NCBI GenBank assembly: GCA_030649135.1
Contig: JAUSGI010000001.1
Coordinates: forward strand, 1 to 10,925
DNA from: a bacterium
GTDB taxonomy: Bacteria; Patescibacteriota; Minisyncoccia; Phycocordibacterales; Zambryskibacteraceae
DNA length: 10,925 bases
Direction of reading: 5' to 3'
The notes under the pieces are model-generated. The model was not told the origin of the DNA and searched no databases. It saw only the letters and a program-made list of their open reading frames with translations. How positions within the stretch are numbered: position 1 is the first letter of the stretch; every line of letters begins with the position of its first letter. This document shows positions 2,247-10,925 of the stretch, piece by piece. A program made the translations under genes and the position numbers.

Positions 2247-2290
2247 CGCCCGGCACCCACGCAAGTGAGTGCCGGGCGGTTTTGTTTTTT
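2247..2290 (+). terminator. Strong rho-independent terminator
   Basis: CGCCCGGCAC (2247-2256) pairs perfectly with GTGCCGGGCG (2269-2278) as a 10-bp stem with a 12-nt loop. GTTTTGTTTTTT follows. Confidence 0.85.
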
Positions 2291-2292
2291 GT

Positions 2293-2300
2293 TGTATAAT
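2293..2300 (+). promoter_or_regulatory. TGTATAAT extended -10-like element 7 nt upstream of the ATPase ATG; a leaderless configuration, and a direct repeat of 1837-1844
   Basis: The 8-mer is identical to the one in the consensus promoter at 1837-1844. There is no good -35 upstream, because that region is the terminator stem. Confidence 0.4.
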
Positions 2301-2307
2301 TAGCGCG

Positions 2308-3978
2308 ATGGCAGATTCGCCAAAAGACCAAGTAATATATTTTGCCGAGACAGACTCGCGTAATAACCGCAAGAAGTTTGGAATTAAGACCGAAGATCGC
2401 TCCAAACATGTCTATGTCATAGGTAAGACCGGCATGGGCAAGTCCACGCTTCTTGAGAACATGGCTATTCAGGATATTCAAAATGGCAACGGTATTGCTT
2501 TCATCGACCCTCATGGCGGTACGGCAGAAAAACTTTTGGATTTTGTGCCCAAAGAGCGCATCAAGGATGTGTTGTATTTCGCTCCTTTTGATACTGAATA
2601 TCCGGTTGCCTTTAACGTCATGGAAGATGTCGGCGCCAACAAACGGCATCTAGTAGTCAGCGGTCTTATGAGCGCCTTCATGAAGCTCTTCGGGGAAGAG
2701 AGTTTTTCCGACAGAATGCAGTACATTCTCCAGAATACCATTCTTGCTCTTCTTGAGTATCCCGGTTCGACCATGCTCGGTATCAATAAAATGCTCGTTG
2801 ATAAGGAATATCGAAAAAATGTAATAGCGAATATTACTGATCCGTCGGTTAAGGCCTATTGGACACAGGAATATGCCGGTTACACAGAACGTTTCGCCGC
2901 AGAAGCTATACCCGCCATTCAGAACAAGATAGGCCAGTTCACATCAAATCCACTCATCAGAAATATCATTGGTCAAGAGAAATCCAGTTTCAATCTTCGA
3001 AAAATCATGGACGAGAAGAAGATTGTAATCGTCAATCTTTCCAAAGGCCGCGTAGGTGAAGACAATGCCCGCCTGCTTGGCTCGATGTTAATTACCAAAA
3101 TATATCTGGCGGCCATGTCACGCGCCGACGAGCGCGCCTCCTCGCTTGCCAAGCTCCCGCCATTTTTTCTGTACGTAGACGAATTCCAATCATTTGCCGA
3201 CAAGTCCTTCGCCGATATTTTGTCGGAAGCTCGCAAATATAAACTCAACCTGACCATGGCTCATATGTATATAGAACAGATGGAAGAAGAAGTGCGCGAT
3301 GCCGTCTTCGGCAACGTCGGCACCATGATAGTCTTCCGCGTGGGGGCTTACGACGCCGATGTATTGGAAAAGGAATTTGCCCCGGTTTTTATTGCAGAGG
3401 ATTTGGTCAACTTGGGATTGCGCCAAATCTACCTCAAACTGATGATAGACTCGGTGGCATCGCCGCCATTCTCCGCCACCACCATGCCGCCAATGCAGTC
3501 TTCAGAGGTTTCCCACACGGAGGAAATTATAGAATATTCTCGCAAGACCTTCGCCCAGCCAAGAAGTGAGGTTGAGAAACGTATCACCGACTGGCATGAA
3601 GCAGGCCGAGTGGCGGTAAAGACCGCTCCGCCCAGAGTGTTTAGCGCGCCTCCGATAGTTAAACCACAGGAGAAAAGACCGATAGAGAAAGTAATCTTAC
3701 CTGTCATGCCCGCGCATGCAGGGCAGGTAGGGAGTAAAATAGAACCCAAACCGCTTCCAAGCATTTCTCTCGAAACTCTGAAAAAGAGCACTGATAATCA
3801 GCGCAAGCCGGACGCCAAGCATGTCGCTGACCTGCGAGATGCGCTCAGAGCCATGACAGGGAATCAGCCGAAGCTAGAGACACCACCCCAGCCTCAAGTA
3901 CAACCGGTACACCCCCAGCCGACCATAAAGAAGGAACCTAGTCAGGAAGAGCTCAAAAAAATCCTCGATGTCCAATAA
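2308..3978 (+). CDS. TraG/VirD4/TrwB-like (type IV coupling-protein-like) P-loop ATPase with no N-terminal TM segment and a Pro/Gln-rich disordered C-terminal tail
   Basis: Walker A is VIGKTGMGKST, followed by IAFIDPHGG. Walker B is FFLYVDEFQSF, then NVGTMIVFRVG. This pattern is typical of the VirD4/TraG/DUF87 ATPase family. The start is taken as ATG 2308 (MADSPKDQ...) rather than the track's GTG 2269, which lies inside the terminator hairpin. The stop TAA at 3976-3978 overlaps the next gene. Confidence 0.8.
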   Translation: MADSPKDQVIYFAETDSRNNRKKFGIKTEDRSKHVYVIGKTGMGKSTLLENMAIQDIQNGNGIAFIDPHGGTAEKLLDFVPKERIKDVLYFAPFDTEYPVAFNVMEDVGANKRHLVVSGLMSAFMKLFGEESFSDRMQYILQNTILALLEYPGSTMLGINKMLVDKEYRKNVIANITDPSVKAYWTQEYAGYTERFAAEAIPAIQNKIGQFTSNPLIRNIIGQEKSSFNLRKIMDEKKIVIVNLSKGRVGEDNARLLGSMLITKIYLAAMSRADERASSLAKLPPFFLYVDEFQSFADKSFADILSEARKYKLNLTMAHMYIEQMEEEVRDAVFGNVGTMIVFRVGAYDADVLEKEFAPVFIAEDLVNLGLRQIYLKLMIDSVASPPFSATTMPPMQSSEVSHTEEIIEYSRKTFAQPRSEVEKRITDWHEAGRVAVKTAPPRVFSAPPIVKPQEKRPIEKVILPVMPAHAGQVGSKIEPKPLPSISLETLKKSTDNQRKPDAKHVADLRDALRAMTGNQPKLETPPQPQVQPVHPQPTIKKEPSQEELKKILDVQ

Positions 3979-7196: not shown

Positions 7197-7443
7197 AACA
7201 GGGAAGCTGTGGATAAGTATAAGATATTAGAAATTAAATCAACATAGCCATAATAGTCATAAGAATGGGTCAATGCACATTATGAATATAATTATAAAGG
7301 TTTTTCTTAATAAAATTAAAATAGTTTATTAAGGTTTAATAATGTTTGTAAATCTTTCTACTCGGACTTAAAAAGCATAAGTTCACTACTTTTTGAGTCT
7401 TCATTCTATCCTTATTTTATAAGGCATTTTACCAATTTTTACT

Positions 7444-7452
7444 TGGTATAAT
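7444..7452 (+). promoter_or_regulatory. Extended -10 element TGGTATAAT (identical 9-mer to the one at 372-380), with a weak -35
   Basis: It lies at the end of a 275-bp region of about 75% AT. The predicted TSS at about 7459 falls just after an in-frame TAG (7456-7458) and 12 nt before the TTG start. Confidence 0.45.
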
Positions 7453-7470
7453 CATTAGACAACAAATAAT

Positions 7471-10400
7471 TTGAAAGCCCAAAGATTGCTAGCAACTGGA
7501 TTGAGCGGTTTTATAATCGGAATTTTGGTTCTCAGTTTTTTAGGGGTATCTTTAAATAAGGTTTTTGCGGCGGGACCACCCTCAATTTTGAGCTATCAAG
7601 GTCGCCTTACTAATGCTTCAGGAAGTCTTCTTGGTGGTTCATCCGGAACTACTTTCTATTTCAAATTTTCAATATGGAGTGCTGCTAGTGGCGGGGCAAA
7701 GCTCTGGCCAGCATCCGACCCGACATCTTATGGCATTACGGTCAGAGAAGGCGTATTCAATGTAAATATTGGCGACACTACGAATGGTTATCCAGATACG
7801 CTTAATTATGATTTCTCGACGAGCACGAATGTATTTTTAAAGGTTGAAGTTTCTGATGATGATGTTGATTTTGAAACTCTCACTCCGCGACAGCAAATCA
7901 ATTCTGTCGCTTTTGCTCAAGTGGCGGGGGCGGTAGTTAGTGCATCTTCCACCATCGCCAATCTCACTGGTACTAACGCCACTACTACCAATGCTACTTC
8001 CACAAATTTCTTTAGTACTACAGCATCTTCAACAAATCTTTTTTCTGCCGCCATAACTTCAGGCTCTGCTATCTTTGCGAATCTTTTGGTAACCAGCTCA
8101 TCAACGCTCCAAAATTTCACTTTCACAAATGCTACAGGAACTTCCGCTACTACGACCAATCTCTTCTCCACCACTGCATCATCTTCCAACTTATTCACGG
8201 CATTATTCAACGGCGCTGGGTTAGCCACTTGCCAATCGAACAACGTCCTCACCTGGTCTGGTGGTATTTTCGGTTGCGAAACGGACGACAACACCTTCGC
8301 ATGGACTCCCATCTCTTACGGTACTCAAAACGTAGTTGCGACATCGACCGGCCTCTGGCTCAAAGGCTCACCTCTAGGCTTAGTTGCTTCTTCTACTTTC
8401 GCCACTTACTCCACCTCGACCAATGCCACCTCGACTAACTTTTTCTCTACTATCGCTTCGTCTACCAGTCTTTTCACATCAGCTTTGACCGTGAATGGCT
8501 TCGCCTTCACGGTCAATGGCGCTCCCACTTTGAACGACTGGTTCGACCAGTCCCTTAAGATCTCGGACGGGCCCGCTTTTTCCACTATCGATACTGGCCA
8601 TGGGGGTAATGAGCTCTATGCTATGGACCAAAACGTTCGGATCTCCGACGACGTAATCTTCGACGAACTCTTGCTAACCGGTTCTTCCACTTTGAGAAAT
8701 TTCACCTTCTTAAACGCCACCGGCACTTCCGCTACTACCACTAACTTCTTCGCCACGAATGCAAGTTCGACAAATCTCTTTACTACTCGACTTGGCATTG
8801 GCACTTCAAACCCCAGCAGTGCTCTAGAAGTTAATGGTGATATTCGTATCACCGCGAATTCCGGAGGGCGTCTCTACTTTAGTGATAGTTCCACACAAAA
8901 TAGTGCAATCGTGTCGGGAAGTGGTATTACAAGTTGGAGCGACTTGAATTTTCAAACCGGCGGAATCATGAACTTCCAAACCGGTAATGGTCTCGGCACC
9001 GCTACCACTACTCATATGGTTTTGGCTAATAACGGTAATATCGGGATTGGTACCACAACCCCAGGCACCCCGCTTGCTGTCACCGGTGCCGGAGTATTTA
9101 CTGGGTTAGTGACGGCACCCTTTTTCAATGCCACTTCTACAACCGATGTTTCTAATTTCCAACAAGTTCTCGTCCTTGCTTCCTCCACTCTTCAAAACTT
9201 TACTTTCTTAAACGCCACCGGCACTTCTGCTACTACCACTAGCTTCTTTGCTACTGTTTTAAATGCTACTACTGCTTCCACCACTAATCTTTTAGTAACC
9301 AGCTCATCAACGCTCCAAAATTTCACTTTCACAAATGCTACAGGAACTTCCGCCACCACCACCAATCTTTTCTCCACCACCGCATCATCTTCCAACTTAT
9401 TCACAGCATTATTCAACGGTGCCGGTCTTGCCACCTGCCAAACCAACAACGTCCTCACCTGGTCTGGTGGTATTTTCGGTTGCGAAACGGACGACAACAC
9501 CTTCGCATGGACTCCCACCTCTTACGGTACTCAAAACGTAGTTGCGACATCGACCGGTTTATGGCTCAAAGGTTCGCCTCTAGGCTTAATTGCCTCTTCT
9601 ACTTTCGCCACTTACTCCACCTCGACCAATGCTACTTCTACTAATTTCTTTGCCACCACGGCTTCATCCACTAGTCTTTTCGCAGCGGTCTTATCATCAG
9701 GCTCCGCCACCCTCGGCGATCTTTTACTTAACAGCTCATCGACACTCCAAAACTTTACTTTCCTAAATGCTACTGGCACTAACGCTACCACTACCAATAT
9801 TTTCTCCACCACTGCTTCTTCTACTAATCTTTTCACCGCTCTTTTCAATGGCGCTGGTCTTGCTACCTGCCAGACCAACAACATGCTCACTTGGGCTGGA
9901 GGAACATTCGGTTGCGAGGTTGATAATGATACCTTCGAATGGACTCCCACCGCTTGGGGCAACTCTACTTCCACCACTCTCGGTTTCTCGCAAGGTTTCC
10001 TCTCTACCGCTTCTTCTACCATAGACTCCAACTTGATTATCACTGGTAACTCCACTACTACCAACGCCACCACTACCAATATTTTCTCCACCACCGCATC
10101 ATCAACCGGTCTTTTTGCAGCGGTTTTATCATCAGGCTCCGCCACCTTCGGCGATCTTTTAATAAATAGCTCATCGACACTCCAAAACTTTACTTTCTTA
10201 AATGCTACTGGCACTAACGCTACCACTACCAATATTTTCTCCACCACCGCATCCACCACTAACTTCTTTGGTGCTGACTTAACCCCATGTACTTCAAATA
10301 ACGTCTTGACTTGGACAGGGGGGAAGTTTGGCTGTGAAGCAGATGACACCGGTAGTGCCACCTTCGGCAAAGACTGGAACATCTTTACCGTTGGCCGGCT

Positions 10401-10925
10401 TGCCCCGACTACCACAGTGGCTGTTTATGTGGGAGCAACCACCACAGCCTCCCTTACCAACAACTCGTACTTCCAAGTGAATGCGACTTCCACTACTGGA
10501 GACTTAATCGTGGCTTCTTCCTCCCAGGACTTCACTGGCAACTTCTTAAGATTCCTCAATGCCGCTGGTGCAACTCTCTTCTCTGTTGATAATACCGGTT
10601 CTTTGATTGCCGCTTCCACTACTTTCACCAACGCTACCTCGACCAATCTCTTCTCCACCACCGCATCTTCATCGAACCTCTACACCGCTCTCTTTAATGG
10701 CGCCGGTCTTGCCACTTGCCAAACCAACAACGTCCTCACCTGGGCCGGTGGAGAGTTCGGTTGCGAAGCGGATGATAGCGGCAGCGCTGGCTTCGGCAAA
10801 ACTTTTGAAATGTCCAACACCAACTTCCTCGCTCCCACCACCACGGTCTCGGTGATTATCGGCTCCACCACCACCCCGGACAAAAGCGCTTTATTCCAAG
10901 TGAACGCCACCGGCACCACAGGTAA
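7471..10925 (+). CDS. Giant secreted Thr/Ser/Asn-rich tandem-repeat surface protein, 3'-partial (at least 1,151 codons; continues beyond the window)
   Basis: I translated the frame by hand from TTG 7471 (TTG 7486 is an alternative start) to the window end and found no stop codon. The N-terminus, KAQRLLATGLSGFIIGILVLSFLGVSLNKVFA|AG, is a signal peptide. The body consists of repeated modules S-T-L-Q-N-F-T-F-x-N-A-T-G-T-x-A-T-T-T-N-x-F-S-T-T-A-S-S-x-N-L-F followed by A-L-F-N-G-A-G-L-A-T-C-Q-T-N-N-V-L-T-W-x-G-G-x-F-G-C-E-x-D-D. The ORF track omits it because no stop lies in the window and the start is TTG. Confidence 0.85.
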   Translation, partial: MKAQRLLATGLSGFIIGILVLSFLGVSLNKVFAAGPPSILSYQGRLTNASGSLLGGSSGTTFYFKFSIWSAASGGAKLWPASDPTSYGITVREGVFNVNIGDTTNGYPDTLNYDFSTSTNVFLKVEVSDDDVDFETLTPRQQINSVAFAQVAGAVVSASSTIANLTGTNATTTNATSTNFFSTTASSTNLFSAAITSGSAIFANLLVTSSSTLQNFTFTNATGTSATTTNLFSTTASSSNLFTALFNGAGLATCQSNNVLTWSGGIFGCETDDNTFAWTPISYGTQNVVATSTGLWLKGSPLGLVASSTFATYSTSTNATSTNFFSTIASSTSLFTSALTVNGFAFTVNGAPTLNDWFDQSLKISDGPAFSTIDTGHGGNELYAMDQNVRISDDVIFDELLLTGSSTLRNFTFLNATGTSATTTNFFATNASSTNLFTTRLGIGTSNPSSALEVNGDIRITANSGGRLYFSDSSTQNSAIVSGSGITSWSDLNFQTGGIMNFQTGNGLGTATTTHMVLANNGNIGIGTTTPGTPLAVTGAGVFTGLVTAPFFNATSTTDVSNFQQVLVLASSTLQNFTFLNATGTSATTTSFFATVLNATTASTTNLLVTSSSTLQNFTFTNATGTSATTTNLFSTTASSSNLFTALFNGAGLATCQTNNVLTWSGGIFGCETDDNTFAWTPTSYGTQNVVATSTGLWLKGSPLGLIASSTFATYSTSTNATSTNFFATTASSTSLFAAVLSSGSATLGDLLLNSSSTLQNFTFLNATGTNATTTNIFSTTASSTNLFTALFNGAGLATCQTNNMLTWAGGTFGCEVDNDTFEWTPTAWGNSTSTTLGFSQGFLSTASSTIDSNLIITGNSTTTNATTTNIFSTTASSTGLFAAVLSSGSATFGDLLINSSSTLQNFTFLNATGTNATTTNIFSTTASTTNFFGADLTPCTSNNVLTWTGGKFGCEADDTGSATFGKDWNIFTVGRLAPTTTVAVYVGATTTASLTNNSYFQVNATSTTGDLIVASSSQDFTGNFLRFLNAAGATLFSVDNTGSLIAASTTFTNATSTNLFSTTASSSNLYTALFNGAGLATCQTNNVLTWAGGEFGCEADDSGSAGFGKTFEMSNTNFLAPTTTVSVIIGSTTTPDKSALFQVNATGTTG
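8083..8476 (+). repeat. Intragenic direct repeat, copy A (about 390 nt), paired with 9289..9682
   Basis: The offset is exactly 1206 nt with no indels. Roughly nine in ten nucleotides are identical by eye across the compared core (8091-8230 vs 9297-9436). Nearly all differences are synonymous third positions, and the proteins differ at only about 3 of roughly 118 residues. Confidence 0.8.
9289..9682 (+). repeat. Intragenic direct repeat, copy B, paired with 8083..8476
   Basis: See copy A. Confidence 0.8.

Follow-up and report, generated by a model that had tools for sequence, protein, structure and literature searches.

A truncated patescibacterial gene predicted to encode the exported N-terminal part of a fibre-like surface protein

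Introduction

How ultra-small episymbiotic bacteria recognise and attach to their hosts is largely an open question; studies have dealt mostly with type IV pili and with a few adhesin candidates. In phage proteins with a Peptidase_S74 domain, such as the K1F endosialidase and the T5 tail fibre protein pb1, a C-terminal intramolecular chaperone drives trimerisation and then cleaves itself off. The giant surface proteins of bacteria from the Candidate Phyla Radiation (CPR) have been suggested to build a fibrous coat and to take part in host attachment (PMC8080830, PMC13059738). Here we describe a gene of a CPR bacterium (Patescibacteriota; Minisyncoccia; Zambryskibacteraceae) that starts at position 7471 on the forward strand of contig JAUSGI010000001.1 (assembly GCA_030649135.1) and is still open at position 10925. 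The window analysed is this entire GenBank contig of 10,925 nt, and the gene is cut by the contig end.

The closest known proteins come from the same phylum and have the same kinds of shaft unit. They are Patescibacteria proteins that NCBI names ‘tail fiber domain-containing’ (among them P0029, P0035, P0044 and P0082), two of which (P0029 and P0035) also have the same signal peptide and N-terminal domain (NTD) as the window protein. These named proteins are complete and carry Peptidase_S74, whereas the window gene breaks off before reaching one. We consider that 7471-10925 probably encodes the N-terminal 1,151 residues of a Patescibacteria (CPR) cell-surface fibre adhesin built on the phage tail-fibre plan. 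The narrower statement, that the protein is a Sec-exported surface fibre of the NTD family, is very probable.

Results

Translation of the forward strand from 7471 to 10925 gives 1,151 codons with zero stops up to the window end, a run with a chance of about 4e-21 given the base composition; each of the other five frames contains 20-120 stops across the same interval. A first-pass annotation had claimed a gene of at least 1,151 codons here that was absent from its list of open reading frames (ORFs). The observation of a real, large open coding frame is confirmed, and its absence from the list arose because the ORF tool omits ORFs that run off an end. Nor is the gene unannotated: GenBank contains it as the partial protein MDO8589655.1 (‘MAG: hypothetical protein Q7R69_00045, partial’; 1,133 aa, 100% identical), where MAG stands for metagenome-assembled genome. 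When we attempted to extend the contig, an exact 36-mer from the repeat found no match in the genome contig collection, and an exact 28-mer from the window end found none in the metagenome contig collection. A protein-based metagenome scan returned no close orthologue, the best match being 65% identical over the NTD.

The encoded N-terminus reads MKAQRLLATGLSGFIIGILVLSFLGVSLNKVFA up to the predicted cleavage site and AGPPSILSYQGRL beyond it. Residues 1-33 (7471-7569, +) make up a predicted Sec signal peptide, with K2 and R5 in the n-region, a hydrophobic core and cleavage between VFA and AG; the first-pass annotation had already placed a signal peptide with cleavage near this site, and the mature protein is predicted to begin AGPPSILSYQGR. 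The assignment draws on hydropathy and on the layout of homologues. The best 15-aa hydrophobic window has a mean Kyte-Doolittle value of 2.69, and about 40 homologues combine K/R residues, a hydrophobic stretch and an A-x-A motif 7-9 residues before a conserved SYQGRL.

The TTG at 7471-7473 (+) is most likely where translation begins, and no other possible start lies between the upstream in-frame TAG at 7456-7458 and this codon. This is the start that had been proposed at the outset, and it gives both a canonical signal peptide and the start layout seen in related loci. At the equivalent position in L002, L003, L006, L007, L013 and L067, a TTG or GTG followed by AAA lies about 18 nt past a TGnTATAAT box. 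The box is invariant in six related loci even though the sequence around it has diverged (mean column identity 62%), and in the window it is the extended -10 promoter box TGGTATAAT at 7444-7452 (+), 18 nt upstream of the start codon. Because of this short distance, and with no Shine-Dalgarno sequence between the box and TTG 7471, the transcript leader would be very short, at about 11 nt. The GenBank start for MDO8589655.1 is a TTG at 7525 (MVLSFLG...), 18 codons later, so that the n-region is lost together with roughly half of the hydrophobic core. The deposited start thus seems to lie too far downstream, and starting at 7471 restores the complete signal peptide. About 20 nt upstream of the -10 box there is also a perfect palindrome, CCTTATTTTATAAGG (7410-7424), and L007 has a comparable hairpin with a T-run at the equivalent place (GGCCTTATTTTAAGGCCTTTTTT); the palindrome could be a terminator of the upstream operon or an operator.

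Behind the signal peptide lies the conserved NTD (residues 34-170; 7570-7980, +), which measures about 135 aa. AlphaFold2 (AF2) predicts it as a seven-strand beta-sandwich with a mean predicted local distance difference test (pLDDT) score of 85 and a core above 90, residues ~154-170 being a disordered linker. Neither the NTD nor the shaft modules that follow have a Pfam model. The NTD alignment has 15 invariant columns, all of which are present in the window protein and which include Q, G, L, F, W-P, G-x-F, G-D and P-R, and the window NTD matches its relatives at phmmer E values of 1e-23 to 1e-64. The domain occurs in 47 of the 120 homologues listed, nearly always directly behind the signal peptide, and is joined to shafts that vary widely in length and content, that is, a constant base with variable partners. 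Short NTD proteins (~330 aa including the signal peptide) are also found, in L016, L026, L040, L052, L063 and L081. They carry a compact, conserved C-terminal domain of ~170 aa (‘...ENLWVCSGGSCG...NKFKLKQIDASTT.MYD.T...ILEFDEGQ’, ending at the stop), and this subclass shows that the NTD is a reusable N-terminal module.

The remaining residues, 171-1151 (7981-10925, +), form a modular shaft that is still open at the contig end and is rich in Ser, Thr, Asn and Ala (19% Thr, 13% Ser, 10% Ala, 9% Asn). The first-pass annotation had described a globular N-terminal region followed by repeats of this composition. The former is matched by the confident beta-sandwich prediction; the latter are present, yet they are organised as ~144-aa modules and not as short tandem repeats. 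Within the shaft we recognise paired 10-mers (NATSTNLFST-TASSSNLFTA), SSTLQNFTF units and the higher-order modules of ~144 aa, and the strongest identity autocorrelation is at a lag of 144 aa. A candidate periodicity of 11 residues was rejected, the short unit being the paired 10-mer and the dominant period 144 aa. The same organisation is visible in the DNA, where three tandem copies of a ~432/435-nt module occupy 9182-10483 (+) and an earlier copy starts at 7976. The DNA repeat families D1-D4 are 64-90% identical to their reference copy, are spaced by 1206/432/435 nt and keep the same codon phase.

Five short hairpins of the form C-x14-C punctuate the shaft on the forward strand: residues 254-269 (CQSNNVLTWSGGIFGC; 8230-8277), 656-671 (9436-9483), 800-815 (9868-9915), 940-955 (10288-10335) and 1083-1098 (10717-10764). 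Their consensus is CQ[ST]NNVLTW.GG.FGC, in which the C, G, F and C are invariant across 33 aligned modules from many proteins, and the two cysteines are inferred to be disulfide-bonded. In an AF2 monomer model of residues 590-770 (mean pLDDT 53), the hairpin is predicted as two beta-strands at ~80 and the remainder lies at ~45-55. A shaft that needs to oligomerise in order to fold would be expected to give low confidence of this kind. The C-x14-C modules and the SSTLQNFTF/NATSTNLF units also occur in homologues with a different N-terminus, consisting of a helix-turn-helix plus a transmembrane segment.

Searches of the window protein against Pfam, NCBIfam, PHROGs and PDB sequences gave no significant match, and a full-text literature search found no paper describing an NTD-fibre family. 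The protein nevertheless has 174 homologues at E<=1e-5, many of them carrying PF13884 and named ‘tail fiber domain-containing protein’ by NCBI. The taxon-named homologues all belong to Patescibacteria lineages (Parcubacteria, Paceibacteria, Zambryskibacteria, Magasanikbacteria, Doudnabacteria, Minisyncoccia) save one, from a Pyrinomonadaceae MAG, and the nearest relatives are from Zambryskibacteria and Paceibacteria. On the evidence of nearly all taxon-named homologues, the family appears restricted to Patescibacteria. A profile of the NTD found 416 loci in GTDB species representatives, of which the 80 listed are all from Patescibacteria or unclassified MAGs. At E<=1e-3 the same profile matched 18,652 cluster representatives, of which 554 reached <=1e-30; the longest has 5,047 aa, and the NTD begins at about residue 30-50 in almost every one of the top 150. 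The family has two kinds of N-terminus: in one a signal peptide precedes the NTD, in the other a cytoplasmic helix-turn-helix is joined to a transmembrane segment. By these comparisons, the 7471 gene is a further member of a family that is known to databases and unstudied.

Truncation at a contig end is common among these loci. Of the 80 species-representative loci, 56 have an NTD gene that continues past the locus end, and in ~54 of those 56 the contig itself ends ~0.7-6 kb past the NTD start, mostly within <3 kb. Complete family members reach 2,700 to 5,000 aa. The number and size of family members are thus underestimated, because repeat-rich genes break MAG assemblies.

What may lie beyond position 10925 can be judged from relatives. 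P0029 and P0035 combine the NTD and Peptidase_S74 in one protein, and other complete relatives end in C-terminal domains such as an LVIVD propeller, Laminin_G_3 or DUF5011. A conserved tail, ‘FF.N.F.R...WLADA.NGI..FFA....TKELC......C.TK.QLD.LL’, precedes a Pro/Thr/Glu-rich end; 25 of 120 homologues have this tail, in every case at 40-160 residues from the C-terminal end. The most informative relative is L003, a scaffolded syntenic orthologue with a TTG start, the NTD and a shaft that leads into a run of N. After this gap comes Peptidase_S74, which scores 33.8 bits against a gathering cut-off of 22; the conserved tail and then a Pro-rich end follow it. L003 is the best available evidence for what follows 10925. 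In the window protein itself, PF13884 gave no match in 1,151 residues, even at E<=1 on sub-segments, the C-terminus lying outside the contig; on window evidence alone, the protein cannot be filed as Peptidase_S74. The LPXTG, T9SS CTD and S-layer homology (SLH) signals suggested earlier for the C-terminus did not appear in the Pfam results for the relatives examined, and SLH, T9SS CTD, sortase-substrate and trimeric-autotransporter domains are likewise absent from the 1,151 residues. For the ‘ADYAEYF...’ C-terminal domain of some relatives, a Peptidase_G2-like assignment was dropped, as Pfam and PDB sequence searches gave no support.

The same MAG contains two more gene fragments made of the same shaft units. 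One, P0027 (MDO8589656.1), has the helix-turn-helix type of N-terminus and is cut at its C-terminus. The other, P0006 (MDO8590345.1; 1,641 aa), is truncated at the N-terminal end and finishes in an LVIVD beta-propeller plus the conserved tail. P0006 begins ‘NTFAWTPTTYGTQNVVATSTGLWLKGSPLGLIASSTFATYSTSTN’, which is the module of window residues 274-320 and 676-722. Possibly it represents the C-terminal part that the window gene lacks, in which case the whole protein would have ~2,900 aa or more.

Upstream of the gene are a tRNA-Ile, genes for a putative glycosyl hydrolase with DUF4015 and for a VirD4/TrwB-like ATPase, and three GT4 glycosyltransferase genes; L002 (Candidatus Zambryskibacteria; NTD 77% identical), L003 and L006 keep this arrangement ahead of their NTD genes. 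The protein could instead be mainly a structural envelope coat, an S-layer-like glycoprotein whose shaft is glycosylated by the three upstream GT4 enzymes and which would make up a fibrous or glycan layer around the cell. The position of the GT4 and DUF4015 genes immediately upstream, kept in these three loci, favours such a coat, as do the glycosyltransferase genes upstream of the NTD gene in L007, L030 and L079 and the glycosyltransferase and methyltransferase genes that flank P0002, the closest full-length relative. The protein is also 32% Ser+Thr and has 33 N-x-S/T sequons; however, ~32 are expected from composition, and enrichment in N-glycosylation sequons was therefore rejected. The GT4 genes, on reading, lack signal or membrane features. 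Neither an accessory Sec system nor an oligosaccharyltransferase is encoded in the window, and export machinery for a pre-glycosylated protein is absent from it. Most NTD loci have no homologues of these glycosyltransferase genes within 8 kb upstream. Finally, the family is highly mosaic, with several paralogues per genome (P0006 and P0027 in this MAG), which fits variable binding proteins better than a lattice-forming coat. On balance, we regard a primarily structural coat as unlikely and favour the fibre adhesin.

Parts of the shaft resemble phage tail fibres. Residues 358-406 (FDQSLKISDGPAFSTIDTGHGGNELYAMDQNVRISDDVIFDELL; 8542-8688, +) are 51-63% identical to a tandem unit of ~27 aa in a protein encoded by L131 (BLASTP E=4e-16). 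This L131 protein (7094-13876; 2,260 aa) is a metagenomic tail-fibre protein that matches many PHROG tail-fibre families (best E=2.6e-41); its unit reads ‘MDQNVRTTD.xTFATVDTGQGANELYA’, and the window protein holds ~1.5 copies of it. The 358-406 segment also has many matches in diverse marine and freshwater metagenome contigs. Further along, residues 441-537 (8791-9081, +) form a ‘GIGT...NIGIGTTTP’ module of a kind seen in tail-fibre-like proteins, and residues 414-546 match phrog_9942 ‘tail fiber protein’ weakly (E=0.001, 18 bits); the paralogue P0006 from the same MAG matches phrog_9942 at 1.3e-22.

Such links, together with relatives that are named ‘tail fiber domain-containing protein’ and carry Peptidase_S74, raise the question of whether the gene is a phage or prophage tail fibre on a bacterial contig. 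Several observations make this very improbable. The Sec signal peptide is kept across ~40 homologues, and such a peptide is unexpected on a virion protein, which is assembled in the cytoplasm. There is no phage gene in the window, and synteny with housekeeping-type genes is kept across species. The NTD occurs in the 416 species-representative loci noted above, whereas tblastn of the NTD and of the shaft against 50,697 phage genomes gave no match and IMG/VR (2.9 M contigs) contains only 9 weak relatives of the NTD. These comparisons contradict the prophage explanation and point to a cellular, not viral, gene, in keeping with a surface fibre of the bacterium itself.

That the long frame is a compositional accident, or that the true gene lies on the opposite strand, is refuted: one antisense frame does have just 20 stops and an open run of 270 codons, but against this stand the improbably long stop-free run of the forward frame, the differences between internal DNA repeats (92/38/207 at its codon positions 1/2/3, synonymous changes predominating in most repeat pairs compared), its protein homologues at E = 0 and 6.6e-186, and the high-confidence predicted fold of the encoded N-terminal domain. 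All of the antisense ORFs (7917-8312, 9612-10415 and others), like the Pro-rich +1 ORFs, fall within the 7471 gene. Its codons are 19% ACN, 10% GCN and 10% TCN, with C or T at position 3, and it is this make-up that generates those ORFs, ACC/ACN reading as Pro in the +1 frame. Since repeat substitutions fall mainly at position 3 of the forward frame, the antisense and shifted ORFs are shadows of the gene, in agreement with the first-pass annotation.

The rest of the window contains other features of note. The tRNA-Ile (anticodon GAT) lies at 253-326 on the reverse strand and scores 74.2 bits to Rfam tRNA. The gene at 2269-3978 encodes the VirD4/TrwB-like coupling-protein ATPase, whose position is kept in L002, L003 and L006; no other type IV secretion genes are present in the window beside it. 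In a published survey, most patescibacterial VirD4 homologues were not adjacent to virB4 (PMC12102498). Only 7 nt separate a TATAAT box (2295-2300) from an ATG at 2308 (MADSPKDQ...), which suggests a leaderless transcript for this gene.

Just upstream is a GC-rich island (1816-2291) with 54.5% GC and an ORF GC3 of 77%, most of the genes around it having ~39-50% GC. Its features are a consensus promoter (TTGACA at 1816-1821, a 17-nt spacer and TGTATAAT at 1837-1844), an AAGGAG Shine-Dalgarno sequence at 1878-1883, a 114-aa ORF at 1892-2236 that belongs to no Pfam family, and a strong terminator hairpin at 2247-2278 plus a T-run. No similarity to the island was detectable in the syntenic L002, L003 and L006, and it could have been inserted from a foreign source. 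A possible RNA gene between 1815 and 2300 was set aside, as Rfam gave nothing above threshold.

Discussion

Taken as a fibre adhesin, the protein would be made and deployed as follows. Transcription would begin from the conserved extended -10 box with its very short leader, and the product would be exported by Sec, with the signal peptide removed at the A-x-A site. The missing C-terminus would resemble that of full-length relatives, with Peptidase_S74 or another domain, a Cys-containing tail and a Pro-rich tail. Judging from relatives and from what is known of S74, a C-terminal chaperone would nucleate folding of the trimer and then cleave itself off. The position and conservation pattern of the NTD suggest that this constant domain is the cell-proximal end and docks on the envelope, and the variable shaft and distal domains would then project outward and bind host cells or particles. 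A role in host-cell attachment is suggested by the lifestyle of cultivated Patescibacteria and by the published proposals for giant surface proteins of CPR bacteria. Whether the protein is in fact a trimeric adhesin with the NTD proximal to the cell we consider an even question.

Several points weigh against this reading. The C-terminus of the gene lies outside the window, and it is from relatives that a chaperone domain, trimerisation and self-cleavage are predicted. Those relatives show at least two C-terminal types, and P0002, the closest at full length, has no Pfam-detectable S74. The monomer model of the shaft module is of low confidence (pLDDT 53) and gives no usable fold or oligomeric state. 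No anchoring motif was identified, and the protein might be released instead of retained on the cell. The adhesin role is a predicted one.

More speculatively, fibres of this kind may be a phylum-wide system of Sec-exported proteins derived from the phage tail-fibre plan, in which the NTD plugs into the episymbiont envelope and swappable shaft and distal domains, whose folding depends on a self-cleaving C-terminal chaperone, set host recognition. We put this forward tentatively, as an idea more doubtful than the assignment of the single protein. A constant base, a mosaic shaft, phage-fibre segments and, in relatives, a chaperone-type C-terminus are what would be expected of exchangeable host-recognition fibres. 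If the idea were true, the NTD-fibre family would be a main host-range determinant in Patescibacteria, and a systematically under-counted one. In practical terms, the GenBank start should shift to 7471, and genes of this family should be recognised as routinely truncated in MAGs. The single gene is ordinary, an already-deposited partial, and it matters chiefly for drawing attention to a large and unstudied family of patescibacterial fibres.

Among known systems, the serine-rich repeat adhesins (Fap1, GspB, SraP) resemble the window protein in being Ser/Thr-rich exported fibres encoded beside GT4-type glycosyltransferases. In contrast to them, its 33-aa signal peptide is not of the KxYKxGKxW type, its modules of ~144 aa take the place of SX dipeptide repeats, no SecA2/SecY2 genes occur in the window, and the repeat architecture is unrelated. 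By these features it is not a serine-rich repeat adhesin.

The giant proteins of Vampirococcus lugosii and Strigamonas methylophilicida are likewise large, carry a signal peptide or are membrane-targeted, and belong to episymbiotic CPR bacteria (PMC8080830, PMC13059738). They come from Absconditabacteria and contain FN3, integrin, PKD, DUF11 and other adhesion domains, whereas the window protein has no Pfam-recognised domain in 1,151 residues and its named homologues are mostly of Paceibacteria/Parcubacteria type.

In design, the protein parallels phage S74 spikes and fibres, such as the K1F endosialidase and the L-shaped tail fibre pb1 of T5. Relatives of the window protein have the same plan, with a constant N-terminus, a modular shaft, a variable distal part and a C-terminal S74. 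What distinguishes the window protein from these phage fibres is that its family appears restricted to Patescibacteria, that its NTD has no viral counterpart beyond the weak IMG/VR relatives, and that it is predicted to be exported by Sec and is encoded on a chromosome, in a non-phage context.

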